DNA from: a virus
Taxonomy: Duplodnaviria > Heunggongvirae > Uroviricota > Caudoviricetes
IMG/VR virus record: IMGVR_UViG_2698536485_000019
Location: 1 to 18,918 of that record
Direction: 5' to 3' (one strand)
DNA: 18,918 bases
Shown here piece by piece: positions 1 through 16,310 of the stretch (positions within the stretch are counted from its first letter, which is position 1; each line of letters opens with the position of its first letter). A program made the translations under genes and the position numbers. The notes beneath the pieces were generated by a model that was given only the letters and a program-made list of their open reading frames with translations, made no database searches and had not been told where the DNA came from.

Positions 1-225
1 TCGCTTACCTTGTTCGCCTTCGAATATATACACGCTTGTGAATTTGTTAGGGCTAATTGTTTGTTTATTTTCAACTTTTTGCATTGAAGGAAGTTGAATC
101 ACCCCACGCTTTGCCAGACGTTCTATTGATATTCTGACATTACCGTGTTGGCTTCCCACCAACTCAGCGATTTCAATGCTTGTCATTTTGATGGCATTGC
201 TATTTATCAGCTCATTCATTGTCAT
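1..225 (-). CDS. Phage regulatory protein, Rha/AntA-like N-terminal domain (partial; 3' end runs off the window)
   Basis: Minus-strand ATG at 225..223 preceded by AGAGGA; translation MTMNELINSNAIKMTSIEIAELVGSQHGNVRISIERLAKRG resembles N-terminal domains of phage Rha/AntA-type regulators (from memory). Reading frame is open to the window edge. Confidence 0.45.
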   Translation of the reverse strand, partial: MTMNELINSNAIKMTSIEIAELVGSQHGNVRISIERLAKRGVIQLPSMQKVENKQTISPNKFTSVYIFEGEQGKR

Positions 226-293
226 GTCCTCTCACATTGAAAATTCAGCAATAAAAAACCCAGCCGAAGCTGGGTTTGTTAAGTTGTCAATTG

Positions 294-1028
294 TCAGTAG
301 CGATGCAGTGAAGGCGGCAACTCTTTGTTCTTAAGCCTTTCCCATGCCAGAAGGTTCGTCGGCCCGTCAGGCTCATAAATATCTATATCCCGCGTGTGAT
401 TAATTAAAACGCCCCTCGCCCTCCCGATGATATACGAGAACTCATAGCCGTAGTCGTGGCATATGCCGGAATAGCCAGACTGAATCAGTTTTAATGCGGG
501 ATACAACTCACGGAACAATGCCTGTGAGCGGTTGGCATAATCCCACAGCCATACAAGGCTGTCTGTTTCTTTTGCGGAAAGCCCGTTGAGCTTCTTCTCT
601 TGTTTGCCAGTATTTTTCTCGCACTGGCTGAAATAGCAGTCTTCCAGTTTTTCGAACACATCCCACGCCTGATCAGTTTCGAGCATTTTTGCGTGACGGG
701 CTGCGCCTCGTTCTGTCCAGAGTATGAGGGAGCGGGCTTTCGGGGAAATTTGTAACCCTCTTAAAGATGGTTGCAAATTTTGTGAGTTACTTAAAGTAAC
801 CCGCAAATTTTGTGAGTAGTTTAAAGCTACCCGCAATTCTTTAAGGTCATTACCAACAACTTTGAAAAAGTGTTTCCCTTCAACGAAGCGTACTTTGTTC
901 TCATGATGATTCTGGCGAATACGCACCGGCTCAGTGCCGTAAAGCTGCGCCAAAAGTTCGGTGGTAATAACAGGAATCTGGTTATGGGTGATCGGGGAGA
1001 GAGTTTCAACAGAAATTTGAGTTGTCAT
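294..1028 (-). CDS. Roi-like DNA-binding / antirepressor-like protein
   Basis: 244-aa ORF with RBS-like AGAGGG upstream of ATG at 1028. Position after ninE in the nin region and two-domain architecture with an internal repeat linker resemble Roi/antirepressor proteins of lambdoid phages; family assignment is from memory. Confidence 0.55.
745..848. repeat. Tandem ~30-bp direct repeats (about 3.5 copies) inside the Roi-like coding region
   Basis: Copies gcaaattttgtgagttacttaaagtaaccc (773-802) and gcaaattttgtgagtagtttaaagctaccc (803-832), with degenerate flanking copies; they encode the peptide repeats [10 protein letters not shown] / [10 protein letters not shown]. Confidence 0.7.
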
Positions 1029-1185
1029 AATGACGCCCTCTGGTGGTTTCTTAATAACTCACCACCGACGACGCCAATCGTCTGGTGGTGAACTGTGCAG
1101 GGTTGGCGTAACCGGGAAACCGACCGGCGCGGATCTCTCCGCCCCCACACAGCCCACCATAATTCAGATGTGCGCGTGCATACGA

Positions 1186-1211
1186 CAATAAAAAACACGC
1201 TCGCGGCGTGT
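1186..1211 (-). terminator. Rho-independent terminator downstream of ninE
   Basis: Minus-strand hairpin ACACGC-CGCGA-GCGTGT followed by TTTTTTATTG, in a 270-bp gap with no credible ORF. Confidence 0.55.
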
Positions 1212-1302
1212 ATCTGTCGCGGTCTCTATCCAGGACGCCAATCCCGACGCCAGATTTTGCTGGCGCGTGAGGAATATAGCCCCGAATAAATCATCGCGTC
1301 AA

Positions 1303-1485
1303 TCACCTTGTTTTCCTCGCACGATGTCTTAGCCACCGGATATCCCACAGGTGAGCCGTGTAATTGAAGGTTTTTACGTCAGATTCTTTTGGGATTGGCT
1401 TGCGTTTATTTCTGGAGCGTTTCGTTGGAAGGTATTTGCAGTTTTCGCAGATGATGTCGGTGATACTTCGTCGCTGTCGCCTCAT
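1303..1485 (-). CDS. ninE: NinE protein
   Basis: 60-aa translation [60 protein letters not shown] matches lambda NinE as I recall it; its ATG overlaps the upstream gene's stop (ATGA). Confidence 0.8.
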
Positions 1486-2009
1486 GCCGCCCTCCTGACG
1501 CCCTGCCCGATCGCCATCAATGCCGCTTTGGATACAGTAGTAAACATTCGTCGAGGACTGATGAACGGTCGCCAAATCAGCAGCATGGAGCCTTTGCTGT
1601 TTCCCTTCTTCTCCAGCCCTGTCGATGGTTCGATAAAATTAATCCGTCCATCAGTGATGATGCGAACTTCGTCAACACTCTCCAGAGCCTTGCTGAACCA
1701 TCCGACTGACATATCCTCTGGCACAAGCATAACTACCGTCTGTCGCTGTTGTATGCACTGCTCAGCGGCTTTTTCCACCCACGGCCTGATATTGCTGTAC
1801 GGTGGGTTATTCCAGATTGCACCGTGGCTTACCCACTCAGAATTGAGCGCGTCGTCGGCCTCAGTTAGCCAGTGAGCGCACAGAGCATTTTTGTCGCTCG
1901 CAGCTGAATCCAGCCAGAATCCAAACTCAATATCCAGCGCATCAAAAAGCCAAAGCGGCGTTTGCCAGCAGTCCTTGTCGTGTGCTGGTGTATTTGATTT
2001 GATAGTCAT
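1482..2009 (-). CDS. Phage DNA N6-adenine methyltransferase (Dam-like)
   Basis: 175-aa ORF with the amino-methyltransferase motif IV NPPY ([10 protein letters not shown]); start overlaps the ninB stop (ATGA); sits at the ninC position of the nin region. Confidence 0.75.
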
Positions 2010-2458
2010 GCAGCCCTACCTTTTCGTTGTGACCATTCATACTCTCGCCGGGAGTCATCACTCCACCGCACGTTGCGCTCTGAGCCGAACCAAAACATGA
2101 TTTCGATAAGCTCAGTCATGCTGGCCTTTCGCATTTTGCTGGTACGCACGCCAAGCATGACAACGCCACCATCGATACCAGGCACACTTCGTTGCTCCAG
2201 TTTTTTGGTCTTAAGCCACAGGGCAGTGAACAGGTCTTTCCAGTCCTCCGGCGCAAGTCTCTGTCCATGCCAAAGCACCTGACGTGATACGTCCTGCAAT
2301 AACGCCCACATAAGGCGGTTTTGAGGATTGCTCCGCTTTGGTTCTTTAATGTGGACTTCGTGAGGTGACTTGTCGTCGATCGGAAGTGAGAGTATTGCGT
2401 CTATGGCGTTGTTTCTGATTGCTTCGTTGCGAAGCATGTATATTTGCTTCATTGTCAC
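2006..2458 (-). CDS. ninB: NinB (Orf-family recombination protein)
   Basis: 150-aa ORF; motifs ...NPQNRLMWALLQDVSRQVLWHG... and C-terminal ...[20 protein letters not shown] resemble lambda NinB (from memory). Confidence 0.8.
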   Translation of the reverse strand: MTMKQIYMLRNEAIRNNAIDAILSLPIDDKSPHEVHIKEPKRSNPQNRLMWALLQDVSRQVLWHGQRLAPEDWKDLFTALWLKTKKLEQRSVPGIDGGVVMLGVRTSKMRKASMTELIEIMFWFGSERNVRWSDDSRREYEWSQRKGRAA

Positions 2459-2459
2459 C

Positions 2460-2666
2460 TCAACTCACAAAACGCCACGCCATTTTTGCTACAGCGACAG
2501 GCGCAACACCGATAATCACCCACAGGAAAATGCTACCGAAAAGCACACCAACCAGGTCTTTACCTTCGCCTACCAGCCGGACAAAACTGCTGGCAACCAC
2601 AATGAACGTCGCCACCATCCACATAGCACCGAGAATCCTCAATGCAGAAAAAATCAACTCAACCAC
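2460..2666 (-). CDS. Small membrane protein (two predicted hydrophobic helices), function unknown
   Basis: 68-aa ORF with GTG start at 2666 preceded by GGGGGAGAG; strongly hydrophobic translation (MWMVATFIVVASSF..., VLFGSIFLWVIIGVAPVAVA). Confidence 0.45.
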   Translation of the reverse strand: MVELIFSALRILGAMWMVATFIVVASSFVRLVGEGKDLVGVLFGSIFLWVIIGVAPVAVAKMAWRFVS

Positions 2667-2687
2667 GATTTACTCTCCCCCAAATAA

Positions 2688-2715
2688 AAAGGCCTGCGAT
2701 TACCAGCAGGCCTTT
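2688..2715. terminator. Perfect 10-bp stem hairpin at the 3' end of the HNH endonuclease gene (terminator-like, possibly bidirectional)
   Basis: aaaggcctgc (2688-2697) / gcaggccttt (2706-2715), 8-nt loop; T-run on the plus side (tatctgttttt) and TTATTTG on the minus side. Confidence 0.5.
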
Positions 2716-3325
2716 ATCTGTTTTTAACACGCTTTCGAGTCCTTTTAGATTTTTCCTTAAGATATTCCGCAAGTTTATCCTCATCATTATTAAATTGAGA
2801 TAAAAGCTCATGCTCGCAATTAAGTGCTTTACTCGCATAAGTTCCATATAGTTTCTTTCTTGCTAGTGCTGCTATGAATGCTGCATCTTCTTTGCTATCG
2901 AAATACCCTAACGATATTGTCTTATTTTTATAACCAACATAAGACTTCCACCTGCCAGTTGGCTTATACCAAGACACTCCAATTGCACCGGATGTGTTTA
3001 ATCTATTCCCTACAATGTTTCTTGCATTCTGCTCTTCTGTTGCCAGTCTTAGGTTTGAAATCCTATTGTCAAGTCTGTTCCCATTTACATGATCAATAAA
3101 CTTAGGAGGCCATTTTTTGTATACATAGAACCAAGCAAGTCTATGCGCCTTATACAAAACATTATTTATACTAATGCATATATAACCACCACTAACACCT
3201 CCAGCAATACTACCTTTTACTCTTACTACTGAATTTGTTTTTAGCCATTTAAATATTCCTGTTTCTGAGTCATATGATAATGTTGACAGAAGCTCATCGT
3301 GATCAATTAGTTTTTTTATTCGCAT
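2714..3325 (-). CDS. Free-standing HNH homing endonuclease with AP2-type DNA-binding domain
   Basis: 203-aa ORF; HNH motif IDHVNGNRLDNRISNLRLATEEQNARN and AP2-like segment GVSWYKPTGRWKSYVGYKNKTISLGYFDSKEDAAFIAA. The ~700-bp region is visibly AT-rich relative to its neighbours. Confidence 0.75.
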   Translation of the reverse strand: MRIKKLIDHDELLSTLSYDSETGIFKWLKTNSVVRVKGSIAGGVSGGYICISINNVLYKAHRLAWFYVYKKWPPKFIDHVNGNRLDNRISNLRLATEEQNARNIVGNRLNTSGAIGVSWYKPTGRWKSYVGYKNKTISLGYFDSKEDAAFIAALARKKLYGTYASKALNCEHELLSQFNNDEDKLAEYLKEKSKRTRKRVKNR

Positions 3326-3403
3326 AAAGAATATACTTAATAATATATACAGTAAGAACCATTAGTAACGATAACCCTGCTATTAGCTCAGTGATGTAGA
3401 TGG

Positions 3404-3673
3404 TCATTGCTTCATCTCCCTTTCCATTTCATCAATGTCAACGTCATCAGGAAGATGGGAGCAATACGCCGCTATACCATGATGATTTATCTCATACCCT
3501 TTGAACGTTACCATCTGGTGCGTAATCTCAACTTCGTTCAGGAATCCGTCATCGCATAACTGCCTGGCTATTTTCGATTTGGTCTGGATTATTGGTAGTG
3601 CCTGTTCTTTCAAAGCGCATGATATTTGTGCATCCCATGCCTTTTCGAGAATAGCTAATTGTTTTTTATTCAT
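3404..3673 (-). CDS. Hypothetical nin-region protein
   Basis: 89-aa ORF whose ATG (3673..3671) overlaps the helicase stop (ATGA); no family recognised. Confidence 0.45.
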
Positions 3674-6063
3674 ACGTCAGCCCCTTGTGCATATCGTCTG
3701 CCACGCGCAGCAGGTGCATTTGATGCTGTGCAAATCTGTCTGGCTTCATCCTGGTCACATGCAACAAAGTGTCCGTTACAGAACCGCTGGTAAACCGTAC
3801 CAAGTGAGCCAAAACGGTTTTTCGTCACGATGATTTCAGCAAATGGCGCGGCGCTACTGTTCTCGTCATATACCGCTTCCCGATAGAGCATGATGATTGA
3901 GTCTGCGTCCTGTTCAATGCTTCCTGAATCACGCAAATCTGCGTTTGTCGGGCGTTTATTTGGTCGCTTCTCAACATCGCGCGAAAGCTGACTTAGGGAG
4001 ATAACTGGCGTTTTCAGGTCTTTCGCCATCGCCTTCAGGCTTCCGGAGATGTGAGCAATTGCGAGGTCGTTGCGGTCTGCTTTCGGCTTCTCAATCAGGC
4101 CAAGATAATCCGCCATGATGAGTGAGAGGTTTGGATTTTCCTGTTTGTGCCGTTCTGCGATTGAGCGTATTTCTTCGACCGATAACCGCGAGGCATCGAC
4201 TACCCATACATCCAAATCTGCAAGCTGACTCATGCCGTTAGCAACACGTGCCCAGCCTTCGTCATCCATCGATGCAGGATTTCGCAGTACGCTAACCGAC
4301 ATCCTCCCGGCGTTGGCAATGCTTCGCTCTGCAATCTGCAATGCGCTCATTTCCATTGAGAAAATCAATACCCCGCGCCGGACGTCAGAACCAGGAATAA
4401 CACGACTTGCAACGCCTTCGGCAATCTTCAGCGCCAGTTCCGTATTGTGCGTAACGATGTAATCCGTTGTCACATAGAGATGGCTAGGATGGCTTACCAT
4501 GATGCAGAGACACTCTTCTGGCTCAACAACTTCAACCGATTTGATACCCACACCAACGTCGCCAAGCCTGTTAATCCCGAGATTTTTGCGTAAACGTGGT
4601 GAGTGAATTTGCTCTATCAAAGATGATGGCAACTTCATGCTGACCATGTGTGCATCAAGTCCGTCGTGCTTCTCTCCTTTGTACGTGTAAACTATTCCCG
4701 TCCTGCTGGATTCTTTGGCGGTTCCACCTAAAGATCTAACAAGCCTTACTAATCCTTTAGCTAATTTCTGACTGGATGAACTAAAGCGGATGCATCCGGA
4801 CTTCTCAACCCAGCCATCTGTCTCGAGAAGGCCAGTTAAAACACCGGTACGTATTTCTTTGCTAGCACTAAAAATTTCTGCTGGGATTTCCTTCTCGGAC
4901 GCACCTTTCCCGATCACCCCAATGCCACGTAGTTTGTCCAATAGTGGGTTCTTCTGGCCTTTTTGGTTGCTTATCAAATAATCATTCTCTCCTACCTTAA
5001 CCAGTCGCAATGGTGCAATTGCATCACTCATGCGGCTCAGGACATATTCTTCCGAGTTGGTGAATTTGATGCCTTTTATCAACGAACCGTCACCAAGTAG
5101 AGCCCCAATAACCCAACCATCAAGGGGAATATTTTTACCAAAGTCTCCGGTCAAGGATGGCACTCTTATTCTTCCCTGATAACGTGTTTTTTGTAGCATC
5201 CCAGCCAGCGCATCAGTATCAACAACGCGTTTACCAGTAAATCTTGATGATGAAATTTCCCATAAGTGGTTGTCGGCACATTTCACGCTACGTCCGTCTT
5301 CAAAGGTGACTAAATATGTGAATTTCTTCCCTTGTGGGAAGACGCCAATTACCTCCGAAGGAAGCCCGTCTATTGACGCGATGCGATCGCCAATTTTGAC
5401 TTCTCCGTGAGTAGTCCAGGTGCCATCTGCAAGTAAAATCCCTTCGCTTAGCGCCATTGCTTTCCCCATACCAGGACGAGCAGCGATTATCACCAGGTCT
5501 TCTGCGTTCATCCCTCCGGTGATGGCGTCAAGTTCTTCGATTCCGGTCTTCAGGGTATCTGACTCTTCTCCGTTCCTCAGACGCCTGTCAAGCGTGTCAG
5601 TGTAGTCAGTGATGATTTCCCCTAACCGTACAGGTTTAACCTCGTCACGGGGCTTTCTGATGGCTGAGAGACGTTTTACAAGTTCATCCATCGCCTGACT
5701 CGATGCGTCGATGGTTCCGCTTTGGATTGGTTCACGCATTTCATCCATGATTTCCAGCACCAGACGGCGGTGATAGTTATCCGCGACCATTCCGGCATAT
5801 CCCTTCAGGTTTGCGGCACTCGGGCAGTTTTTGCTGGTCATCAGGATTGACGTGAAATGCTCCTCTCCGCACGCCTCGGCAACCATCAGCGCGTCGATTA
5901 GGTTTCTGTTTCGCGCCTGCTTACGGATAACCTCGAAGGCTTTCCGGTAGAGCGGAATTGAAAACGCCTCCGGCTCCAGCGTTGCCAGAACGTCGCTGGC
6001 AGTTGGCGTTAATCCACCAATCAGCAGGCCACCGATAACGCTCGCTTCGATATCCTGTCTCAT
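3670..6063 (-). CDS. DnaB-family replicative helicase (P22 gp12-like) interrupted by an intein
   Basis: 797-aa ORF. N-terminal domain with ...[18 protein letters not shown]..., Walker A AARPGMGK then a ~339-aa insertion, resuming [10 protein letters not shown]... with typical DnaB C-terminal motifs. Start overlaps the O-like gene stop (ATGA). Confidence 0.85.
4444..5460 (-). mobile_element. Intein with LAGLIDADG homing-endonuclease domain inserted at the helicase P-loop (GMGK | T)
   Basis: Helicase residues 202-540. Begins [14 protein letters not shown] (Ala, not Cys/Ser), block B ...[19 protein letters not shown]-like motifs [13 protein letters not shown] and [11 protein letters not shown], block [20 protein letters not shown], block G YIVTHN followed by +1 Thr, which restores GK-T of Walker A after excision. 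Confidence 0.75.
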
Positions 6064-7007
6064 GCAATCCCCCTGTCTGCAAACTTCCCTTCCCGGACTC
6101 CCGTTAACGAGTCTTCTCTCAGCAGGTAATCAAAATCTGCCGTCCAGCCCGTGTCGTTGTCTCCGAAGTAAAACGGCTTGGCCTGATGCACAAACGCCCT
6201 GACATACGCTCTGAAACCGTCCACGTTTGGCGTTTTCAGTTGCGGGATGATTTTCTTCAGGCGGCGTTTGCGTTTCTCGTTGACCGCAACAGCATGTGGA
6301 AGTCTGTCACCGACTTCGGTGTTGTAGGCGTTCAGGAAGGATTCGTAGTCGATTCGTTCTGCCTTGCGACGTTCAGGTTTAACCTGCCCATCGCCTCCCC
6401 CATTGGGGGGTAGGGGGGTATTATTTATATTCTTGTTAATACCTTCTTGTTCATGATGTGCGGTTGTTTGTGCGGCTTCATGTGCGCTTTCATGTGCGGC
6501 ATGTTCGCTGAAATCCGCGCCATTACTGGCTTCGTCATGTGCGGCATCATGTGCGGTCGTTTGTGCGGCTTCATGTGCGGGTGAATCGTCCATTTTTTGA
6601 GCATATTCATGGTAATTTGTGATGGTAATCACACGACCTTTTTGCTTCTCTCCATCAATGGTGATCATCCCCTCTTTCACAAAAACCTGAAGCATCCGCT
6701 CAACCTGATCGCGGCTTGCTGGCTTGCCATGCCTGTCGCATAACTGAAGACCTAAATCAGCTGCTGTCACAACCAGTTGACCGGGTTGCAGATGCCATTC
6801 ATGACCTTTGAAATTCGCTTTGTATGGCTTTCTGGTGGCATTCAGGAGAAGGTTTTCCCACAGGGTGCGAAGATAAACATCTTTCGCCCATGACTGTTTC
6901 AGAATGCTCCGGTACAACGGAATGTAACCAGTTTTCTGGTTCTCCATCCTGTTGCTCCTGCGCTCGTGTGCGGCGCTGAAATCGTAGATTTTTGCTGTAT
7001 TGCTCAT
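6060..7007 (-). CDS. Replication initiator, lambda O / P22 gp18-like, with iteron-containing origin inside the gene
   Basis: 315-aa ORF starting [10 protein letters not shown]... (P22 gp18-like N-terminus, from memory); the central His/Ala-rich repetitive segment is encoded by the iteron array; directly upstream of the helicase gene. Confidence 0.75.
6418..6600. repeat. Putative replication origin: iteron array (about 7 copies of a (T/C)(A/T)TGTGCGG core at ~12-bp spacing) plus adjacent AT-rich segment
   Basis: Repeated catgtgcgg / tttgtgcgg units across 6445-6600; AT-rich stretch ggtattatttatattcttgttaatacc at 6418-6450 on the transcription-downstream side, as in lambda ori. Confidence 0.65.
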
Positions 7008-7009
7008 AA

Positions 7010-7282
7010 CTACCTGCCTTGACGAAAGACCTTAAGAACATCGTTAAACTGACTTACGGATATGTCTTCTTTGAGCAGCTTTTCCAGAAATGCGTTTGGA
7101 ATGAACGTATATCCCTCCTCTTTTGGTAGAGACGGGAGCAACGCCCTCGCCTCAGCCTTCAGAAGCTCAGTTCTGGCAACTTTCACAAAAGAGATTTGAG
7201 TTCTTTCATCAATGGAACGAAGGAAGCGCAAACGCTTAGCTTCTTTGTGTGTATCAGGTGGATTAAAGCCTTTGTTTCGCAT
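7010..7282 (-). CDS. Hypothetical small protein between cII and O
   Basis: 90-aa ORF from the internal ATG at 7282 (RBS GAGGT upstream); stop abuts the O-like start. The longer six-frame call would overlap cII. Confidence 0.5.
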   Translation of the reverse strand: MRNKGFNPPDTHKEAKRLRFLRSIDERTQISFVKVARTELLKAEARALLPSLPKEEGYTFIPNAFLEKLLKEDISVSQFNDVLKVFRQGR

Positions 7283-7304
7283 ATAATTACCTCGCTGGAT
7301 GTTG

Positions 7305-7604
7305 TTAAAATTCCATTTGTATTTGATCAGAACGCTCGGTCTTGCACACCGGGCGTTTTTTATTGGTGAGTCCATCAAGCGCATACTTAAAAGCCCTGCT
7401 AATCGGACTGATGTCTGATGCCATTCCGAAAGCACACAAGACCGAAGCAATAAACCTCCAGTCCGTTCTGCTTATCTTCGATTCATGACAGCCAATCATC
7501 TTTGCCAGACCGCGCTGGGTAAGCGTTGACAGGTTGATGAGTAAATCTGTTTCTGCGCGATCAATTTCTCGCTGTGTTAGCTTGCTGTAACTTGCTTGTG
7601 CCAT
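7305..7604 (-). CDS. cII: CII-family transcriptional activator (P22 C1-like)
   Basis: 99-aa ORF ending ...NKKRPVCKTERSDQIQMEF, like the lambda CII C-terminus ...NKKRPAATERSEQIQMEF (from memory); sits downstream of cro and nutR. Confidence 0.8.
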   Translation of the reverse strand: MAQASYSKLTQREIDRAETDLLINLSTLTQRGLAKMIGCHESKISRTDWRFIASVLCAFGMASDISPISRAFKYALDGLTNKKRPVCKTERSDQIQMEF

Positions 7605-7628
7605 TTGTTAATTTTCCTATATTGATAT

Positions 7629-7657
7629 ATAGCGGCACACCCAGTGGATTTGCCGCT
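7629..7657 (-). terminator. tR1-like hairpin between nutR and cII
   Basis: 7-bp stem agcggca / tgccgct with a 13-nt loop, followed on the minus strand by AUAUAU; weak as an intrinsic terminator, lambda tR1 is Rho-dependent. Confidence 0.3.
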
Positions 7658-7664
7658 GATGTTT

Positions 7665-7706
7665 GCTCACCCGGTTAGAGGTGAAAGGCCAGAACTGTTA
7701 AAGAGC
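7665..7706 (-). promoter_or_regulatory. nutR (boxA + boxB)
   Basis: Minus-strand boxA GCTCTTTAACA (7706..7696) and boxB hairpin TCACCTCTAACCGGGTGA (7684..7665); same boxA and loop CTAACC as the nutL copy. Confidence 0.7.
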
Positions 7707-7713
7707 AATTTAC

Positions 7714-7899
7714 TTATGCCGCTTGGCGGTAAGCACTTTCTTGATACTTCAGGGCGCCAGCTGTAACGATTTCCAATCGATAGGCGTCTTTCTCTGGGAT
7801 AACTTCTTTCCACTGAGAGACTGCTGCATCGCTAATGCCTAGTGCTTTAGCAACAGCACGCTGGGTTCCGAAGTGGTCAATAACATCTTTTTTGTACAT
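7714..7899 (-). CDS. cro: Cro repressor (P22-type)
   Basis: 61-aa translation MYKKDVIDHFGTQRAVAKALGISDAAVSQWKEVIPEKDAYRLEIVTAGALKYQ... matches P22 Cro as I recall it; divergent from the repressor gene. Confidence 0.85.
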   Translation of the reverse strand: MYKKDVIDHFGTQRAVAKALGISDAAVSQWKEVIPEKDAYRLEIVTAGALKYQESAYRQAA

Positions 7900-7913
7900 A
7901 GACTCGCTCCGAA

Positions 7914-7979
7914 ATTAAAGAACACTTAAATTATCCACCAAAGGATTCTTAAGTCAAGTTTATTTAAGATGTCTTAACT
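7914..7979. promoter_or_regulatory. OR region: three 18-bp operators (7914-7931, 7937-7954, 7962-7979) with PR and PRM
   Basis: Three sites fitting ANTNAAG-N4-CTTNANT (attaaagaacacttaaat, accaaaggattcttaagt, atttaagatgtcttaact). PR on the minus strand: -35 TTGACT (7957..7952), 17-bp spacer, -10 ATAATT (7934..7929). Confidence 0.7.
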
Positions 7980-8630
7980 ATGAATACACAACTGATGGGT
8001 GAGCGTATTCGCGCTCGCAGAAAAGAACTCAAGATTAGGCAGGCTGCCCTTGGCAAGATGGTTGGCGTGTCTAATGTTGCTATTTCCCAATGGGAGCGAT
8101 CTGAAACTGAGCCCAATGGCGAAAACCTATTGGCCTTAGCCAAGGCTTTGCAGTGCTCCCCTGATTACCTGTTGAAAGGAGAGGATAGTCTTTCAAACAT
8201 TGCCTATCACAGCAGGCATGATCCAAGAGGTTCGTATCCTCTAATTAGTTGGGTAAGCGCAGGATGTTGGATGGAAGCTGTAGAGCCATATCATAGGCGT
8301 GCAATAGATAACTGGTACGACACAACGGTAGATTGTTCTGAAGACTCTTTTTGGCTCGACGTTAAAGGTGATTCAATGACTGCCCCGGCAGGACTGAGTA
8401 TTCCTGAAGGGATGATTATTCTCGTCGACCCAGAAGTCGAACCACGTAATGGAAAGCTGGTAGTCGCCAAACTTGAAGGAGAAAACGAGGCGACATTCAA
8501 AAAGTTAGTTATTGATGCCGGTAGAAAATTCCTGAAACCACTCAATCCACAATACCCAATGATTGAAATCAATGGGAACTGTAAAATCATTGGCGTTGTC
8601 GTTGATGCCAAGCTAGCAAACCTTCCTTAA
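7980..8630 (+). CDS. cI: Prophage repressor CI (P22 c2-type, HTH + S24 LexA-like autopeptidase domain)
   Basis: 216-aa translation MNTQLMGERIRARRKELKIRQAALGKMVGVSNVAISQWERSETEPNGENLL... with C-terminal S24 motifs (GDSM, KLVVAKL); matches P22 C2 as I recall it. Confidence 0.9.
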   Translation: MNTQLMGERIRARRKELKIRQAALGKMVGVSNVAISQWERSETEPNGENLLALAKALQCSPDYLLKGEDSLSNIAYHSRHDPRGSYPLISWVSAGCWMEAVEPYHRRAIDNWYDTTVDCSEDSFWLDVKGDSMTAPAGLSIPEGMIILVDPEVEPRNGKLVVAKLEGENEATFKKLVIDAGRKFLKPLNPQYPMIEINGNCKIIGVVVDAKLANLP

Positions 8631-8652
8631 GGGGCTTTCGCCCCTTTTTTAT
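8631..8652 (+). terminator. Rho-independent terminator after the repressor gene
   Basis: aggggc-tttc-gcccct followed by tttttta immediately after the cI stop. Confidence 0.6.
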
Positions 8653-8684
8653 TTCCCGTTAAAAATCAAAGACAAACTAAATTC

Positions 8685-8738
8685 GCGCCCATAAAATTAA
8701 GTTTTCTTCAAAAATGCACTTGACCAACAAATTAAGAG
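8685..8738 (+). promoter_or_regulatory. OL operators and pL promoter
   Basis: Operator-like sites aaattaagttttcttcaa (8685-8702) and aattaagaggtcttaaat (8720-8737); -35 TTGACC (8710-8715), 17-bp spacer, -10 TAAATT (8733-8738). Confidence 0.6.
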
Positions 8739-8794
8739 GTCTTAAATTTAAGCCGTCAGCAGGAGGCTGGAAGCCAAACGGAACAGATTGGCAG

Positions 8795-8834
8795 GCTCTT
8801 TAACATCGACGAACTCTCAACCTAACCGTTGAGA
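8795..8834 (+). promoter_or_regulatory. nutL (boxA + boxB)
   Basis: boxA GCTCTTTAACA (8795-8805); boxB hairpin TCTCAAC-CTAACC-GTTGAGA (8815-8834); upstream of N. Confidence 0.7.
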
Positions 8835-8944
8835 CCAGAACTTGAGTGGTTTTGGGGATGGCGCGAATTGCAGCTGCAAGACAGCGATCGAGAAGATAAG
8901 CACCTCGACGCGTCATGCGCCAAAGCCACTTAAAGGAGACCATC

Positions 8945-9250
8945 ATGGTAACCATTGTCTGGAAAGAATCCAAAGGTACGGCAAAAAGCCGCTACAAAGC
9001 TCGCAGAGCAGAACTTATTGCCGAGCGACGCAGTAATGAAGCACTGGCGCGAAAAATTGCGCTAAAGCTCTCTGGTTGCGTCAGAGCAGACAAAGCAGCA
9101 TCACTAGGAAGCCTTTGCTGCAAGAAGAAAGAAGAAGTTGTTCGAAAAAATAGAAGTATTTATTACAAGGATTCAAACCCATTAGGAAACAAAATACATG
9201 CAGTCCAAAAAATAAAATTGTACAGTAAACTACCGTACGGTGCTTATTGA
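8945..9250 (+). CDS. N: Antiterminator N (phage-21-type arginine-rich motif) with a divergent AT-rich 3' end
   Basis: ATG at 8945 after AAGGAG; MVTIVWKESKGTAKSRYKARRAELIAERR... matches the phage 21 N ARM as I recall it; located between nutL and the pL-operon accessory genes. Confidence 0.75.
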   Translation: MVTIVWKESKGTAKSRYKARRAELIAERRSNEALARKIALKLSGCVRADKAASLGSLCCKKKEEVVRKNRSIYYKDSNPLGNKIHAVQKIKLYSKLPYGAY

Positions 9251-9252
9251 GT

Positions 9253-9591
9253 ATGCTTATGGTGAAAAAGACTATTTATGTTAATCCTGACCGCGGACAA
9301 AACAGAAAAGTATCTGATAGAGGTCTTACATCTCGAGACAGGAGGAGAATAGCGAGATGGGAAAAGAGGATAGCATATGCATTAAAAAACGGTGTAACAC
9401 CTGGATTTAATGCTATAGATGACGGTCCTGAATATAAGATTAATGAAGACCCAATGGACAAAGTTGACAAAGCATTAGCAACACCATTTCCTCGCGATGT
9501 CGAAAAAATTGAAGATGAAAAATATGAGGATGTAATGCACAGAGTTGTTAATCACGCTCACCAACGAAATCCAAATAAAAAATGGTCATAG
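9253..9591 (+). CDS. Hypothetical protein (basic N-terminal half, acidic C-terminal half); accessory moron
   Basis: ORF in an AT-rich segment; first ATG 3 nt after the N stop (start uncertain, no clear SD); followed by its own terminator. No family recognised. Confidence 0.45.
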   Translation: MLMVKKTIYVNPDRGQNRKVSDRGLTSRDRRRIARWEKRIAYALKNGVTPGFNAIDDGPEYKINEDPMDKVDKALATPFPRDVEKIEDEKYEDVMHRVVNHAHQRNPNKKWS

Positions 9592-9592
9592 C

Positions 9593-9613
9593 CCACTTCG
9601 GTGGTTTTTTTAT
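9593..9613 (+). terminator. Rho-independent terminator (short stem, UUCG loop, U-run)
   Basis: cccac-ttcg-gtgg followed by ttttttta directly after the 9253-9591 ORF. Confidence 0.5.
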
Positions 9614-9620
9614 TGGCTGA

Positions 9621-9716
9621 ACTAACCGAATTTATTACAGCAAGCCACGCAGTGAAATGGGTGTGACTTGTGTTGGTCGCCAGAAAATGAAATTAGGCAG
9701 CAAACCACTTATTTGA
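9621..9716 (+). pseudogene. Displaced 3' remnant of an N gene (encodes ...NRIYYSKPRSEMGVTCVGRQKMKLGSKPLI-stop)
   Basis: Short open frame with no start codon; it parallels the C-terminus of the intact N gene 400 bp upstream (RSIYY...QKIKLYSKLP) and, as far as I recall it, the phage 21 N C-terminus. Confidence 0.55.
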
Positions 9717-9727
9717 GAGGAATTAAT

Positions 9728-10351
9728 ATGTCATCAATCCGCTTAACTACGAGAATGAAAGAGGAAATCGCTCGTAACGCTTTAATTAAGTCCGGGGTGT
9801 TCACTGAACTTGAAGAAGTAACAAAGTTAAAGAACCAGCTTGCACTTGACGCCAGAGTTATTGCGTTTGGCGGTAAAAAGAAAACTGAGGAAGTGGATCA
9901 GTTATCATCCAAGTTGGTAGCTATAAGTGAAGAACTTGGAAAGATGGGATGTTCATTTTACTCATACGATGTTAGTTCTACTTCAATTTATCTGACTGTA
10001 TCTGGCAGAAGGGTTGGATGGCATTCATATGGGGAAGACGGCAACGGCAAAGATATATTGCTCCCTACTCCGATCAAAGATAAATGCATGTTTGACGCAG
10101 AACACGAAATAACAAAAAGGTTTGATGAAATCTGCGCATTGCAACAAAAACTTGAAGCCAAGAAAAAGGATATCGAATCAAATGTATGGGCTGCTTTGAA
10201 CTCAGTCACAACAGTTAAGCGACTTATTGAAGTTTGGCCTGAAAGCAAAGAATTGCTACCAAAAGAAGCAGATAAAGCAAGTACAGCACTTCCTGCTTTA
10301 CGGGTAGAAGATTTGAATAAGATGATTGGACTTCCTTCCGAGGCCGCATAG
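9728..10351 (+). CDS. Hypothetical soluble protein, 207 aa (accessory gene in the N-cIII slot)
   Basis: ATG at 9728 with GAGAGG RBS at 9715-9720; coherent ORF with no hydrophobic segments; own terminator at the stop. No family recognised. Confidence 0.6.
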   Translation: MSSIRLTTRMKEEIARNALIKSGVFTELEEVTKLKNQLALDARVIAFGGKKKTEEVDQLSSKLVAISEELGKMGCSFYSYDVSSTSIYLTVSGRRVGWHSYGEDGNGKDILLPTPIKDKCMFDAEHEITKRFDEICALQQKLEAKKKDIESNVWAALNSVTTVKRLIEVWPESKELLPKEADKASTALPALRVEDLNKMIGLPSEAA

Positions 10352-10366
10352 TCGGCCTTTATTTTT
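10341..10366 (+). terminator. Rho-independent terminator
   Basis: aggccg-catagt-cggcct followed by ttattttt, overlapping the stop codon of the 9728-10351 ORF. Confidence 0.6.
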
Positions 10367-10485
10367 GGCATAAACAACAGAATAAATACTGCACTGTGTA
10401 TTCATTCCAACGAGTGAATACACGGAGCAATGTCGCTCGTAACTAAACAGGAGCCGACTTGTTCTGATTATTGGAAATCTTCTTT

Positions 10486-10512
10486 GCCCTCCAATGTGAG
10501 GGCGATTTTTTA
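10486..10512 (+). terminator. Rho-independent terminator within the noncoding gap upstream of ea10
   Basis: gccctc-caatgt-gagggc followed by gatttttta. Confidence 0.6.
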
Positions 10513-10531
10513 TCTGTGAGGATATGAACAG

Positions 10532-10900
10532 ATGTCAAACATCAAAAAATACATCATTGATTACGACTGGAAAGCATCAATAGAAATTGAAATCGACCAT
10601 GACGTAATGACAGAGGAAAAACTTCACCAGATTAATAATTTCTGGTCAGACTCTGAACACCGACTCAATAAACACGGCTCTGTATTAAATGCTGTATTAA
10701 TCATGCTGGCGCAACATGCTCTGCTTATAGCAATTTCAAGCGACTTAAATGCATATGGTGTTGTGTGTGAGTTCGACTGGAATGATGGAAATGGTCAGGA
10801 AGGATGGCCTCCAATGGATGGTAGCGAAGGAATAAGAATTACCGATATCGATACATCAGGAATATTTGATTCAGATGATATGACTATCAAAGCCGCCTGA
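10532..10900 (+). CDS. Ea10-like protein (lambda ea10/ssb position), function unknown
   Basis: 122-aa ORF immediately upstream of cIII, the position and length of lambda ea10 as I recall; sequence identity not verified. Confidence 0.55.
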   Translation: MSNIKKYIIDYDWKASIEIEIDHDVMTEEKLHQINNFWSDSEHRLNKHGSVLNAVLIMLAQHALLIAISSDLNAYGVVCEFDWNDGNGQEGWPPMDGSEGIRITDIDTSGIFDSDDMTIKAA

Positions 10901-10972
10901 GCGCGGCGTTACCGCATACCAATAACGCTTCACTCGAGGCGTTTTTCGTTATGTATAAATAAGGAGCACACC

Positions 10973-11113
10973 ATGCAATATGCCATTGCAGGGTGGCCTG
11001 TTGCTGGCTGCCCTTCCGAATCTTTACTTGAGCGAATCACCCGTAAATTACGTGACGGATGGAAACGCCTTATCGACATACTTAATCAGCCAGGAGTTCC
11101 AAAAAATGGATAA
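10973..11113 (+). CDS. cIII: CIII (inhibitor of FtsH-mediated CII degradation)
   Basis: 46-aa ORF (below the six-frame track cutoff) after AAGGAG: MQYAIAGWPVAGCPSESLLERITRKLRDGWKRLIDILNQPGVPKNG, near-identical to lambda CIII as I recall it. Confidence 0.8.
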   Translation: MQYAIAGWPVAGCPSESLLERITRKLRDGWKRLIDILNQPGVPKNG

Positions 11114-11219
11114 AACACTTATGGCTATCCAGACTAAATTCACTATCGCCACTTTTATTGGCGATGAAAAGATGTTTCGTGAAGCCGTAGAAGCCTACAG
11201 AAAATGGAGGTCAAAATGA
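11106..11219 (+). CDS. kil: Kil (host cell-division inhibitor)
   Basis: 37-aa ORF MDKTLMAIQTKFTIATFIGDEKMFREAVEAYRKWRSK overlapping the cIII stop; resembles lambda Kil (from memory). Confidence 0.7.
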   Translation: MDKTLMAIQTKFTIATFIGDEKMFREAVEAYRKWRSK

Positions 11220-11404
11220 TTCCGGTAGAACTGGCGAAAACCCCAGAGTTAAGTCGATTAAAAAGAGAGTATCACATTGCTGAGGCTCGTTACTGGCGTA
11301 AAGCGGGAGATAAATCAAAGAAACAACTTTGCTTATGGCAGGCACAAAGAGAGCGCATGAATGAGCGCGAATTTCTTTCCTCCCCATCCGAATTACCATT
11401 CTGA
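11216..11404 (+). CDS. Hypothetical small basic protein (62 aa)
   Basis: ATG at 11216 overlapping the kil stop (ATGA), GGAGG RBS at 11205-11209; occupies the position lambda gam would take. Confidence 0.45.
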   Translation: MIPVELAKTPELSRLKREYHIAEARYWRKAGDKSKKQLCLWQAQRERMNEREFLSSPSELPF

Positions 11405-11412
11405 GGTGAATT

Positions 11413-12069
11413 ATGGGTACTGCGACATTAATACTCGGTGAGTCTGGCACCGGAAAATCAACCAGTTTAAGAAACTTACCACCAGAAAAAACATTAATCA
11501 TACAGTGCATAAACAAACCGCTACCATTCCCATCAAGTGATTGGGTTAAAATAAGCAAGGAAAACAATAACGGGAACATATACAGAACAGATAATACTGA
11601 AAATATTGTAAGGGCACTAATTAATGCTCCGCATGAAATTGTAGTTATTGATGATTATCAGGCTGTGATGGTTAACGAACTAATGGGTAAATGCAATGAG
11701 AGAGGATATGACAAATTTACCTCGATAGGGAAAAACGCATGGGATGTGTTCAGGGCTGCTGGTGAAGGTGCAGACACTCGGAGAGTTTATATTCTGGCAC
11801 ACACGCAAACTGATGATTTTGGCTATACACGAATGAAAACCGTCGGAAAACTAGTCGATTCGACACTTGTTCCTGAAGGTTATTTCACTATCGTGTTAAG
11901 AACTCACGTACAGAACGGAAAATACTCATTTTCCACCCAGACAAACGGGAGTGATTGTTGTAAAAGTCCGGTTGGGATGTTTGATAGTCAGTTTATTGAT
12001 AATGATTTGTACGAAGTAGATAAAAAAATATGCTCTTACTATGGGTTTGAAAAAAATGAGACGTCTTGA
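11413..12069 (+). CDS. Sak4-like RecA-core ATPase (phage single-strand annealing recombinase family)
   Basis: 218-aa ORF with N-terminal Walker A GESGTGKST and Walker B-like VVIDDY; size and position (replacing exo/bet) fit Sak4-type recombinases of P22-like phages. Confidence 0.6.
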   Translation: MGTATLILGESGTGKSTSLRNLPPEKTLIIQCINKPLPFPSSDWVKISKENNNGNIYRTDNTENIVRALINAPHEIVVIDDYQAVMVNELMGKCNERGYDKFTSIGKNAWDVFRAAGEGADTRRVYILAHTQTDDFGYTRMKTVGKLVDSTLVPEGYFTIVLRTHVQNGKYSFSTQTNGSDCCKSPVGMFDSQFIDNDLYEVDKKICSYYGFEKNETS

Positions 12070-12661
12070 GGTATCCGGCGAGAGATTTGGCAATTTAGTT
12101 GTTATTGGTGATGCAGGAATGCGTGGTACTCAAAGGTTGGTAAACTGTGTGTGTGACTGCGGAGTAGTTTGTGTTAAACAGCTTGGCAACCTCCGTTCAG
12201 GGCACACAAGAAGTTGTGGTTGCTCACGCTCATCTACAACAAAAGCAAGAAAAAACAAACATGGCATGTATGGAACACCAACATACAAGTCATGGTCTTC
12301 AATGTTAACAAGATGCTTCAATGAAAGAAATAGTAAATACAAACACTATGGAGGAAGAGGAATAACTGTTTGTGAACGGTGGCTGAACTTTAAATTATTT
12401 TTCGCTGATATGGGAAAAAGACCTGACGGAACTACATTGGGAAGAATTGATAACAATGGTAATTACGAACCATCAAATTGCGAATGGCAGAAAAGTATCG
12501 AGCAAGCAAGAAATAAGAGTAATACCGTATTATTTAAATTCAATGGAGTGCTGGCAACAATTTCAGAGCACTGCGAAAAAACTGGATTAAACCCAAGCAC
12601 GGTAAGAAGCAGGATTTACACATATCATTGGTCTGTAGACAAGGCCTTATCAAAAGGATAA
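12041..12661 (+). CDS. Cys-rich HNH-family (variant) nuclease-like protein
   Basis: N-terminal Cys cluster CVCDCG...SCGC; C-terminal RIDNNGNYEPSNCEWQKSIEQARN parallels the HNH motif IDHVNGN...NLRLATEEQNARN of the 2714-3325 endonuclease, with the first His replaced by Asn. Start ambiguous (ATG at 12041 or 12056). Confidence 0.5.
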   Translation: MGLKKMRRLEVSGERFGNLVVIGDAGMRGTQRLVNCVCDCGVVCVKQLGNLRSGHTRSCGCSRSSTTKARKNKHGMYGTPTYKSWSSMLTRCFNERNSKYKHYGGRGITVCERWLNFKLFFADMGKRPDGTTLGRIDNNGNYEPSNCEWQKSIEQARNKSNTVLFKFNGVLATISEHCEKTGLNPSTVRSRIYTYHWSVDKALSKG

Positions 12662-12665
12662 AAGC

Positions 12666-13253
12666 ATGAGCAACGTAATTTTTACTTATAACGAAGAAGC
12701 AGCACTGACCGCAGGGCAAGGTGGTTTTATTAACGAAACTGGCGCTCACATAATTACCATTACTGAAGCAGAACTCAAGCAATCAGAAAAAGGAGCCAAA
12801 TTTATTGAGTTTTCTGGAGAATCCGACGACGGACGTAAAATCCAGTATCTTAGCGTCTGTGTTCAGAAAAATGACGGCACGGAAAACAAATTTGGCGCAA
12901 ATGTCGTTCACGCCATGATGGGGTGTGCCGGGATTGGACAATTAACGCAACATATGGTTTCCGCCAGTAAATTTGTTGCACCTGAATTTCATGGAAAGAA
13001 AATCGGGTTAGTGCTCCAGAAAGTATTAACCACAAACAAAAAGACTGGCGCAGACAGCTACCAGATGGAAATACGCATCCCGTTTATTGCACAAACAGGT
13101 CAAACCCTTAAAGAAAAGGCAGAAGGCAAGCAACCAGAAACTATCGCCAACATGGTTGCCAGCCTCAAAGATAAAGACAATCGCTCTAAAAACGTAAGCC
13201 ATAATCATGCAGATGATTATGGTTACAGCCAGAACGATTACCCTCCTTTCTGA
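12666..13253 (+). CDS. SSB-like protein (probable partner of Sak4) with acidic C-terminal tail
   Basis: 195-aa ORF ending ...HADDYGYSQNDYPPF, reminiscent of the SSB C-terminal tail ...DDDIPF; adjacent to the Sak4-like gene. Confidence 0.5.
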   Translation: MSNVIFTYNEEAALTAGQGGFINETGAHIITITEAELKQSEKGAKFIEFSGESDDGRKIQYLSVCVQKNDGTENKFGANVVHAMMGCAGIGQLTQHMVSASKFVAPEFHGKKIGLVLQKVLTTNKKTGADSYQMEIRIPFIAQTGQTLKEKAEGKQPETIANMVASLKDKDNRSKNVSHNHADDYGYSQNDYPPF

Positions 13254-13276
13254 TTACTGAAAATAAGGCTCCCATT

Positions 13277-13573
13277 ATGCCAGCGCCTCTGTATGGTGCG
13301 GATGACCCGCGCAACTGCTCCGGTAGCTCCAAGGCGGAGGTGCTGGAAAATATCAAAAACAATTTCGACGCGTTTCTTGCTCTGACACCAGAAACAAAAG
13401 CAGAACGGATGTACCGACGCGATATACAACTCGCGCTAAAACAGGAGAAGGACCGAACAAACGAAACAGCAATGAGACCGTTGCGAAAAGCGACAATAGA
13501 CAAATTCCCTGAATATATCGACCCGCGCCTGCGTAATTACCGCTCACGCTATGGCGCTATCAGTAATGACTGA
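13277..13573 (+). CDS. Hypothetical protein
   Basis: 98-aa ORF with AAGG upstream; same strand and tight spacing within the pL operon. Confidence 0.5.
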   Translation: MPAPLYGADDPRNCSGSSKAEVLENIKNNFDAFLALTPETKAERMYRRDIQLALKQEKDRTNETAMRPLRKATIDKFPEYIDPRLRNYRSRYGAISND

Positions 13574-13583
13574 GGAATTTACC

Positions 13584-13874
13584 ATGAAAACAATGAAGCT
13601 AAACATCGACCTCGGAAAATACGTTATTACCGGAACCAAACACGACCTGATTCTTAGTGAAAGAGGAATTATCAAAGAAGGCGAGAATGCAGGGAAAGAA
13701 ACACTAAGCCGTATCGGTTATTACAGCAAGTTTGAGCATCTGGTTAAAGAATTATGCAACCGTGAAATCATGTTATCTCAGGCGCAGACGCTACAGGATA
13801 TTCAGCAACATATCGAGAATTTAGGTGTGTCACTTAGCATGGCTATTGACCAGTTCGTGGAGAGTAAATCATGA
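13584..13874 (+). CDS. Hypothetical protein
   Basis: ATG at 13584 preceded by TGAGGAA; 96 aa; stop overlaps the next start (ATGA). Confidence 0.5.
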
Positions 13875-14038
13875 GAGGACTTGCATACAATCCCGGCATT
13901 CTTCCAGCAGAAATGATTATTCGCCAACGCGTAAAGCCAATGCCATCGAGAGAGGAATTGCTTAAGAGAAATTCTTTTCCTTCAGTGAATCAAAACAAAT
14001 ATCTGAATGCGATGTGGCGTAAAGGAGGCAAGCAGTGA
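13871..14038 (+). CDS. Hypothetical small protein (55 aa)
   Basis: Below the six-frame cutoff; ATG overlaps the previous stop and its stop overlaps the GTG start of the next gene (translational coupling pattern). Confidence 0.35.
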
Positions 14039-14493
14039 GCGAAATTAACTATAAAGAACTGCGCGAGGCGGCGAAACAGGCAACGCAAGATGAATGGGTA
14101 GCATATATTTTGCCGGGCCATAACGGCATTTATCCTGCGCGCACGTCTGAGGGTAGGCATTGCGGATACTTTATTGACTGGCCTGGTACTGATGGACAGA
14201 GGAACGCTAGTGCCAATGCCCGTTATATCGCGGCTATCCCACCAAAAGTTGCGCTGGACCTCCTAGGCGAAATTAAGCGCCTGGAGGACAAAAATATTGA
14301 TGCCATGTGCCAAATTGCAGAGCTGGAGAGCAATCGCGCGGCGCTGGCGGCGGAGCATGGTATTCAGATTGCAATAAATGAACTGCTTGCTCTGGCCCCG
14401 CGTCTGGATAAACGAGCGGTGGATGCACTCTCTGTGGCTGTGGAGCACCTGTGTAAACTGATTAAGAAGGAGGCAGTCAGTGAGCAAAATTAA
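14035..14493 (+). CDS. Ead/Ea22-like protein
   Basis: GTG start; N-terminus [16 protein letters not shown]...W and ...[16 protein letters not shown] is paralogous to the next gene; the family name is from memory. Confidence 0.55.
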
Positions 14494-16239: not shown

Positions 16240-16274
16240 CAATCCTCGCACTCGCGGGGATTTCTTTTATCTGA

Positions 16275-16298: not shown

Positions 16299-16310
16299 AT
16301 GGAGATGATT

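Follow-up and report, generated by a model that had tools for sequence, protein, structure and literature searches.

A predicted class-3 intein with a LAGLIDADG endonuclease interrupts the Walker A motif of a replicative helicase in a lambdoid prophage

The DNA studied here (18,918 nucleotides (nt), positions 1 to 18,918 of the IMG/VR virus record IMGVR_UViG_2698536485_000019, referred to as the window in the rest of the text) contains on its minus strand a gene coding for a replicative helicase of the DnaB/P22 gp12 type. A preliminary description, made from the sequence alone, had noted that this open reading frame (ORF) is about 340 amino acids (aa) longer than expected, and had proposed that the surplus, at 4444-5460, is a class-3 intein carrying a LAGLIDADG endonuclease and inserted in the ATP-binding loop (P-loop, or Walker A motif). 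The gene comprises the following parts, with the evidence for each given in brackets.

3670..6063, minus strand: precursor ORF of 797 aa and 87.0 kDa, a DnaB/P22 gp12-type replicative helicase plus the predicted intein (Pfam DnaB N-terminal domain and DnaB_C)
5461..6063, minus strand: N-extein, aa 1-201, ending at the invariant Lys of Walker A (alignment to intein-less alleles)
4444..5460, minus strand: predicted intein, aa 202-540 of the ORF, 339 aa, 36.8 kDa, AMALSEG...YIVTHN (protein and DNA alignments)
3670..4443, minus strand: C-extein, aa 541-797 and the stop codon, opening with Thr+1 (4441-4443, codon ACG) (alignments)

The excess length was borne out by comparison with the intein-less helicases of phages JEP4 and Stx2a_F349 and with P22 gp12, which are 458 aa long each. 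Aligning the 797-aa ORF with these proteins opens a single 339-residue gap between GMGK and TELAL, the exteins being 100%, 100% and 90% identical to the three proteins, respectively. In the nucleotide alignment the insert directly follows the Lys codon AAA and directly precedes the Thr codon; the latter reads ACG in the window and ACC in empty alleles. Both alignments thus agree with the earlier claim that the insertion is cleanly bounded at GK|T. Taking out aa 202-540 regains the Walker A motif GMGKT, in which Thr+1 has a double role as the Walker A Thr and as the predicted +1 splicing nucleophile. A 300-nt junction spliced in silico was found to be contiguous, with 95-99% identity, in 672 of 5426 complete Escherichia coli genomes and in 106 phage records, including P22 gene 12; around the junction, the empty site of JEP4 or Stx2a_F349 reads CGTCCTGGTATGGGGAAAACCGAACTGGCGCTGAAG. 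The insert has a G+C content of 45.8%, compared to 52-54% for the exteins. Pfam models scored above cut-off for the DnaB N-terminal domain (aa 3-95) and DnaB_C (aa 540-762, E 4e-71), with LAGLIDADG_3 between them (E 7e-6); Hom_end and Hom_end_hint stayed below cut-off, as did the NCBIfam DnaB and phage_DnaB models because the insert splits their matches. The calculated masses are 87.0 kDa for the precursor, 50.1 kDa for the spliced helicase and 36.8 kDa for the intein, so that the roughly 50 kDa first given for the helicase stands and the 88 and 38 kDa given for the other two need minor correction. The P-loop Lys|Thr/Ser position is known as the 'classic' intein insertion site (PMC5050341) and corresponds to DnaB site b, which is occupied by the mycobacterial class-3 DnaBi1 inteins (PMC6195587); the order GMGK|intein|T places the insert of the window at this very site.

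A start of the intein two residues later, at ALSEG, would resemble the class-1 block A 'CLxxxT' but would leave GKAM-T. We rejected it because only GK|A restores GKT, because the family consensus is GK|AQPLD and because the Mycobacterium smegmatis (Msm) DnaBi1 starts with ALAL; the typical family N-terminus GK|AQPLD... confirms a start right after Lys. We also noticed that its first codons, GCAATGGCGCTAAGCGAAGG (A-M-A-L-S-E-G; 5440-5460, minus strand), resemble the start of the C-extein, ACGGAACTGGCGCTGAAGATTGCCGAAGG (4415-4443, minus strand). As a trace of duplication or deletion this repeat was discarded. A repeat-mediated deletion would also destroy GKT, and the resemblance is probably due to chance, since a 65%-identical relative keeps AMAL beside the unrelated C-extein TTLYSQ. 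This relative is known from P0001, P0004 and P0005, fragments of one helicase type, in which a 65-72% identical intein occupies the same GK|T site of another DnaB-type helicase.

The predicted splicing domain is split into two halves flanking the endonuclease.

5146..5460, minus strand: N-terminal Hint half, intein residues ~1-105, blocks A and B (aligned to gp41-1, M. chimaera (Mch) DnaB1 (6rix) and Msm DnaBi1 (6bs8); rich in beta-strands in the model)
5458-5460, minus strand: Ala1 (codon GCA)
5278-5280, minus strand: Cys61 (block B)
5266-5268, minus strand: His65 (B:10)
5260-5262, minus strand: Trp67 (B:12)
4444..4566, minus strand: C-terminal Hint half, intein residues ~299-339, blocks F and G (alignments, homologue conservation)
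4510-4512, minus strand: Cys317 (block F, variable in the family)
4504-4506, minus strand: Cys319 (F:4, proposed nucleophile)
4444-4452, minus strand: Thr337-His338-Asn339

Class-3 inteins are defined by the lack of a nucleophile at position 1, by Trp at B:12, Cys at F:4 and Thr at G:5 (WCT), and by a branched intermediate on the block-F Cys (PMC3196547, PMC5050341, PMC6195587); they form a monophyletic clade according to Tori and Perler 2011 as summarised in PMC3196547. The window combines an exact in-frame insertion missing from close orthologues with blocks A, B, F and G, a Hint fold and His338-Asn339|Thr+1, and it has the class-3 residues Ala1, Trp67 two residues past His65, Cys319 and Thr337. 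Matches to PDB sequences and a high-confidence model support the four intein blocks that had been recognised by eye, Pfam Hom_end_hint matching only below threshold. Ala1 and the motifs NHLW, ECLC and VTHN likewise occur as first described. In phmmer alignments with 6rix and 6bs8, NHLW lies over (A/Q)HQW, E-C-L-C-I-M-V over V-P-V-R-C-V-E-V and VTHN over PTHN, the WCT residues matching those of the class-3 DnaB inteins one by one and Cys319 aligning with Cys118 (Msm) and Cys124 (Mch).

Conservation was assessed in 85 homologues from a large protein collection, 27-72% identical save for two near-identical E. coli fragments, whose host proteins include DnaB-type helicases, PhoH and other ATPases; counts refer only to those homologues that cover the given position. 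Position 1 is Ala in most of them (a few have Ser, Gly or another residue), Trp B:12 is present in all but one, and Cys319, Thr-His-Asn and Thr+1 are near-invariant; nearly all homologues that cover the splicing blocks carry WCT. The position of Cys317 is occupied by C, T, A, V, M and others. The block-F Cys of ECLC had rightly been singled out, but the nucleophile is better placed on the second Cys of this motif than on the first: Cys317 was rejected because it varies in the family, whereas Cys319 aligns with a known nucleophile. Cys61 in block B and Cys317 in block F are two further cysteines near Cys319.

The middle of the insert is predicted to fold as a homing endonuclease.

4567..5145, minus strand: LAGLIDADG homing-endonuclease domain, intein residues ~106-298 (Pfam LAGLIDADG_3 and sub-threshold Hom_end, PI-SceI alignment, fold)
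5080-5124, minus strand: LAGLIDADG motif 1, ending in Asp124 (5089-5091)
4891-4893, minus strand: Lys190, aligned with PI-SceI Lys301
4807-4851, minus strand: LAGLIDADG motif 2, ending in Asp215 (4816-4818)

An AlphaFold model of the intein built on a 57-sequence alignment reached a predicted local distance difference test (pLDDT) score of 94.5 and a predicted template-modelling (pTM) score of 0.93, and comprises a Hint domain and a LAGLIDADG endonuclease. Its top Foldseek match is PI-SceI (E 3e-18, TM 0.72), followed by other endonuclease-bearing inteins and by the class-3 structures 6riy and 6rix (MchDnaB1) and 6bs8 (Msm DnaBi1), all with TMt ~0.76; the middle domain matched I-DmoI, and PI-PfuI was also among the matches. 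Sequence searches of the PDB returned gp41-1, PI-SceI and the M. chimaera and M. smegmatis DnaB inteins. Asp124 and Asp215 are kept in all covering homologues save for two Asp-to-Glu changes and one Arg at the first position, and Lys190 is invariant in the 57-sequence alignment. Sequence, Pfam LAGLIDADG_3 and the PI-SceI-like model all uphold the two LAGLIDADG motifs claimed at the outset; each ends in a predicted catalytic acidic residue, and the fold matches that of an alpha-beta-beta-alpha-beta-beta-alpha pseudo-dimer.

The interrupted allele was found in 24 of the 5426 complete E. coli genomes and in 51 phage records, compared to approximately 672 genomes with the empty site. The exact 797-aa protein is encoded on 408 contigs; members of 797 aa come from the Salmonella serovars Schwarzengrund and Kentucky, and a partial one from Hadar. 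Unrelated DUF6246 proteins of 217 aa fall into the same 90% protein cluster, probably through an artefact of clustering. When intein-bearing alleles are compared with each other, the intein differs at no more than 7 of 1017 nt and the exteins at up to 32 of 1377 nt, an extein divergence that matches the one separating them from empty alleles (25-37 nt). Between the window and the horse isolate E189, the intein differs at 7 of 1017 nt and the exteins at 30 of 1377 (P = 0.004, Fisher test). The Thr+1 codon is ACG in all intein-bearing alleles and ACC in the empty alleles examined. The low divergence of the intein and the shared ACG codon fit a recent spread of the intein into already diverged helicase alleles, by homing with co-conversion of the flanking DNA. 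Beyond this helicase, the intein family is common in PhoH-like ATPases, where it occupies two sites, GTGK|A (the P-loop) and RGR|A, and members are also found across many phages in terminases, Snf2 and DarB-like proteins, with 689 phage records matching at E < 1e-5. In another relative, P0074, the helicase breaks off after block B (HLWEI) and runs into a phage head-morphogenesis domain (PF04233), either because this copy is rearranged and dead or because its assembly is chimeric.

The 797-aa frame is free of stops and frameshifts in five backgrounds, namely the window, O121 strain RM8352, WG5::TT12A, the blood isolate MS20659 and the horse isolate E189. Extein differences among them are almost all synonymous, and V182M and V302L are the only amino-acid changes in the intein; the repressor and O genes differ between these prophages. 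The intact ORF in five prophage backgrounds suggests that splicing very probably works. In WG5::TT12A, the intein-bearing helicase lies within a complete Shiga toxin (Stx) 2a prophage at wrbA. The strain name implies that the phage of O157:H7 strain TT12A lysogenised E. coli WG5 and hence made infectious particles; our literature search found no paper on the construction of this strain. TT12A-specific prophages were reported to be mobilised by mitomycin C (PMC11052207). In addition, 48 intein-bearing phage records are named 'Stx2a-converting phage Stx2_*'; a match by name only suggests that these are the O121:H19 Stx2a phage genomes of PMC8767318, a study in which lineage-L1 strains produced 4.8-14 µg/ml of Stx2 after mitomycin C, more than lineage-L3 strains. 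Neither of the two papers (PMC8767318, PMC11052207) mentions an intein or the helicase.

The gene is poorly served by current annotation. The 797-aa ORF is 100% identical to a coding sequence (CDS) of phage TL-2011a annotated as 'hypothetical protein', and GenBank names the helicase gene either thus or 'DNA helicase'. In RefSeq PGAP the gene appears as an N-terminal pseudogene together with one or two truncated pieces, called CDS or pseudogenes, among them a 453-aa 'CDS' from inside the endonuclease domain. No intein label was found on the gene in the annotation sources examined (GenBank and RefSeq PGAP). The RefSeq fragments make the replication module of clinically important Stx2a phages look defective, very probably wrongly; the phages concerned are those of O121:H19 lineage L1, of O157:H7 TT12A and F578, and of O103:H25 (TL-2011a).

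From these elements, a splicing and homing pathway can be proposed. Translation would yield the 87-kDa precursor, which is expected to be inactive as an ATPase since its ATP-binding loop is split. As residue 1 is Ala, no N-S acyl shift is possible there; instead, Cys319 (F:4), placed by His65, Trp67 and Thr337, would attack the Lys201-Ala1 peptide bond. This attack would give a branched intermediate with a block-F thioester, as judged from the homologous class-3 inteins MP-Be, Dra Snf2, MP-Catera, Msm and Mch. The N-extein would then be transferred to the side chain of Thr+1, cyclisation of Asn339 assisted by His338 would free the 36.8-kDa intein, and an O-N shift would produce the 50.1-kDa helicase with an intact GMGKT loop. 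The predicted cleavage target of the LAGLIDADG domain (Asp124, Lys190, Asp215) is the intein-less allele, at GGTATGGGGAAA|ACCGAACTGGCG, and repair from an intein-bearing copy would then spread the intein.

We consider it highly likely that 4444-5460 encodes a functional, bifunctional class-3 (WCT) intein between the Lys and Thr of Walker A in the DnaB/P22 gp12-type helicase of a lambdoid, Stx2a-type prophage. Splicing competence, class-3 chemistry and endonuclease activity are all inferred here from sequence and homology, and several points weigh against this assignment. Position B:7 is Ala62, compared to Asp in Msm DnaBi1, with Asp63 one position off. The best PDB sequence match of the N-terminal half is the class-1 intein gp41-1, not a class-3 intein. 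Grafting WCT and Ala1 on class-1 gp41-1 gave mostly cleavage and almost no splicing, so that the WCT signature alone is no proof of activity (PMC7664689). WG5 lysogeny and Stx2 yield are indirect signs, as in polylysogens the helicase of another prophage could complement. Finally, the lower divergence of the intein could also stem from ordinary lambdoid mosaic recombination.

In another explanation, the intein is real but splicing has been lost or is very poor, leaving a dead helicase in a prophage that is a passenger or uses the helicase of another prophage or of the host. The PGAP pseudogene fragments at the locus and the many lambdoid prophages of enterohaemorrhagic E. coli (EHEC) genomes that could complement are compatible with it, as is the failed gp41-1 graft (PMC7664689), and there is a documented precedent, the class-3 intein pseudogene Arth_1007 in a prophage remnant of Arsp-FB24 (PMC3196547). 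However, Arth_1007 is without Cys F:4 and His B:10, whereas all catalytic residues are intact in the window; the reading frame is free of stops and frameshifts in five backgrounds, with extein changes almost all synonymous, and the extein protein is identical to the helicases of the complete intein-less phages JEP4 and Stx2a_F349. The prophage of WG5::TT12A, whose name implies that WG5 was lysogenised, and the high Stx2 production of the O121 L1 strains also speak for a working helicase, and the PGAP calls are explained by a pipeline that does not model inteins. A dead helicase is therefore unlikely, and we assign this explanation a low probability.

Still less probable is splicing that does not proceed via Cys319, through either a class-2-like attack of Thr+1 on the N-terminal junction or the use of Cys317 or Cys61 as initiating nucleophile. 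Ala1 alone would be compatible with class 2, and two further cysteines are at hand in blocks B and F; against this, class 2 is known only in KlbA and lacks the WCT motif (PMC3196547), direct attack on an amide by a Thr hydroxyl is chemically less likely than by a Cys thiol, and it is Cys319 that aligns with the experimentally established nucleophiles Cys118 (Msm) and Cys124 (Mch) and is near-invariant, compared to the variable Cys317. The two or three separate CDS or pseudogenes of PGAP and the free-standing HNH endonuclease gene about 350 bp downstream might further suggest that the insert is a free-standing homing-endonuclease gene, or other mobile DNA, that splits the helicase gene into pieces. 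This has next to no chance of being correct and is already refuted by the sequence, which forms one continuous frame with no internal stop, holds an insert of exactly 1017 nt (3 x 339) between two codons, and has Hint halves flanking the endonuclease and a terminal His-Asn followed by Thr; the truncated 453-aa 'CDS' (P0002) begins within the endonuclease domain, a start that would be biologically meaningless.

Class-3 inteins in the P-loops of phage and prophage helicases have been described since 2010-2011. The intein of the window adds to this well-described kind and leaves the understanding of how class-3 inteins work unchanged. Its closest described relative, which we take to be the InBase entry 'EP-Min27 Primase', is the intein in replication protein P of the Stx phages Min27 and phi24B. 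The two are 50% identical over the whole 339 aa and share the layout GK|A...HLW...LAGLIDADG x2...ECLCIMV...THN|T, which in protein P reads GHGK|ACPLNE...HLWE...ECLCIMV...ATHN|TEV. Both interrupt the Walker A loop of a replicative helicase encoded by the phage itself, and both occur in E. coli Shiga-toxin phages. In contrast, P is a TOPRIM primase with a gp4-type helicase, as opposed to the DnaB/gp12 type of the window, and the flanking target sequences, which agree at 13 of 24 central bases, are unrelated. The DNA similarity of the two inteins is confined to one 65-nt stretch, suggesting old paralogues and no recent jump. Two non-orthologous Stx-phage helicases thus carry paralogous class-3-type P-loop inteins (the Min27 gene P intein lies at 2501-3526 of its locus). 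A literature search on inteins in Stx phages, prophages and helicases found only the phi24B/Min27 P-protein report, which dates from 2012 and gives no mechanistic class (PMC3430580).

The mycobacterial DnaBi1 inteins (M. smegmatis 6bs8, M. chimaera 6rix/6riy, M. leprae) are inserted in the P-loop just before the Mg2+-coordinating Ser/Thr, as in the window; Ala1, His B:10, Trp B:12, Cys F:4 and Thr-His-Asn align, and the Hint folds are alike (TMt ~0.76; PMC6195587). They differ in being mini-inteins of chromosomal dnaB that have lost the endonuclease, whereas the intein of the window keeps a complete LAGLIDADG domain and resides in a prophage helicase. They also have Ser instead of Thr at +1 and Asp instead of Ala62 at B:7, and the redox partner Cys48 of Msm DnaBi1 has no counterpart in the window intein, which has Cys61 and Cys317.

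End-to-end homology extends to the mycobacteriophage inteins of Bethlehem gp11 (E 6e-20) and Rizal gp206 (E 1e-28), with 28% identity and with the Cys and THN aligned. We take the former to be the MP-Be 'DnaB' intein, with Cys320 as its F:4 Cys (compared to Cys319 in the window), and the latter to be an orthologue of MP-Catera gp206. Both resemble the intein of the window in length, in the position of the F:4 Cys, in having both LAGLIDADG motifs and in their phage origin, but they have other host proteins and insertion sites and low identity, and the Rizal gp206 intein starts with Ser. The DnaB-like gene gp62 of Bethlehem, considered as the carrier of the 'DnaB' intein, proved to be intein-free, the homologous intein being in gp11. 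Efficient splicing has been demonstrated by experiment for three class-3 inteins, MP-Be and MP-Catera being two of them (PMC3196547).

Similarity to class-1 inteins is of two sorts. The split intein gp41-1 (6qaz), from a cyanophage-like gp41 helicase, is the best PDB match of the N-terminal half (E 5e-8 for the wild type and 6e-11 for a WCT-engineered form) and shares the Thr-His-Asn end; it differs in its class-1 chemistry, with Cys1, Phe at B:12 and Asp at F:4, and in being naturally split and devoid of an endonuclease. In its N-terminal half, the WCT family of the window is nearer to gp41-1 than to the mycobacterial class-3 inteins, a point relevant to the question of whether class 3 diverged from class-1 phage inteins or has a convergent origin. 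PI-SceI, the yeast VMA1 intein, is the best structural match, with the same Hint and LAGLIDADG architecture and aligned Asp, Lys and Asp, but it is a class-1 intein of 454 aa from a eukaryotic host, has an extra DNA-recognition region and is only about 15% identical.

If the intein reading is true, replication of these Stx2a phages should need one cysteine-dependent autocatalytic step. Oxidants, hypochlorite and zinc have been shown to block splicing reversibly in mycobacterial DnaBi1, a class-3 intein with the P-loop site of the window intein, and the catalytic Cys of Msm DnaBi1 is joined to a second Cys by a regulatory disulfide. By analogy, with the thiol of Cys319 as sole initiating nucleophile and with Cys317 and Cys61 nearby, a reversible block by oxidants, hypochlorite or zinc could make splicing a post-translational checkpoint on Stx2a-phage replication, and hence on toxin output, in EHEC. 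This is a speculative idea, to which we give a small though not negligible chance; if true, helicase maturation would be tied to H2O2 and neutrophil products, the same stresses by which Stx prophages are induced. The intein might also be put to use as a native class-3 intein of E. coli whose endonuclease is intact, or as a point of attack on toxin amplification.

The other annotated genes place the helicase in the early region of a lambdoid prophage.

17009-18343, plus strand: integrase
9668-10351, plus strand: Nmad5 (nucleotide-modification-associated domain 5) protein, between the repressor and recombination genes
7980-8630, plus strand: cI-type repressor
7305-7604, minus strand: cII
6060-7007, minus strand: O, replication initiator (Phage_rep_O)
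3404-3673, minus strand: 89-aa ORF
2714-3325, minus strand: free-standing endonuclease of 203 aa with HNH_3 and AP2 domains
2006-2458, minus strand: NinB
1482-2009, minus strand: Dam methylase
294-1028, minus strand: antirepressor

O, the upstream partner gene, overlaps the start of the helicase gene by 4 nt, so that both belong to one replication module. The HNH-AP2 gene downstream of the intein-bearing helicase is found at the same spot in the Stx2a prophage of WG5::TT12A and is absent there in TL-2011a and the O121 phages; this patchy presence points to a second, independently mobile endonuclease in the replication module. The window is a mosaic: complete E. coli genomes cover at most 57% of it, and TL-2011a matches only a part. 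The homologue of the Nmad5 protein in the O121 prophage is a truncated fragment.

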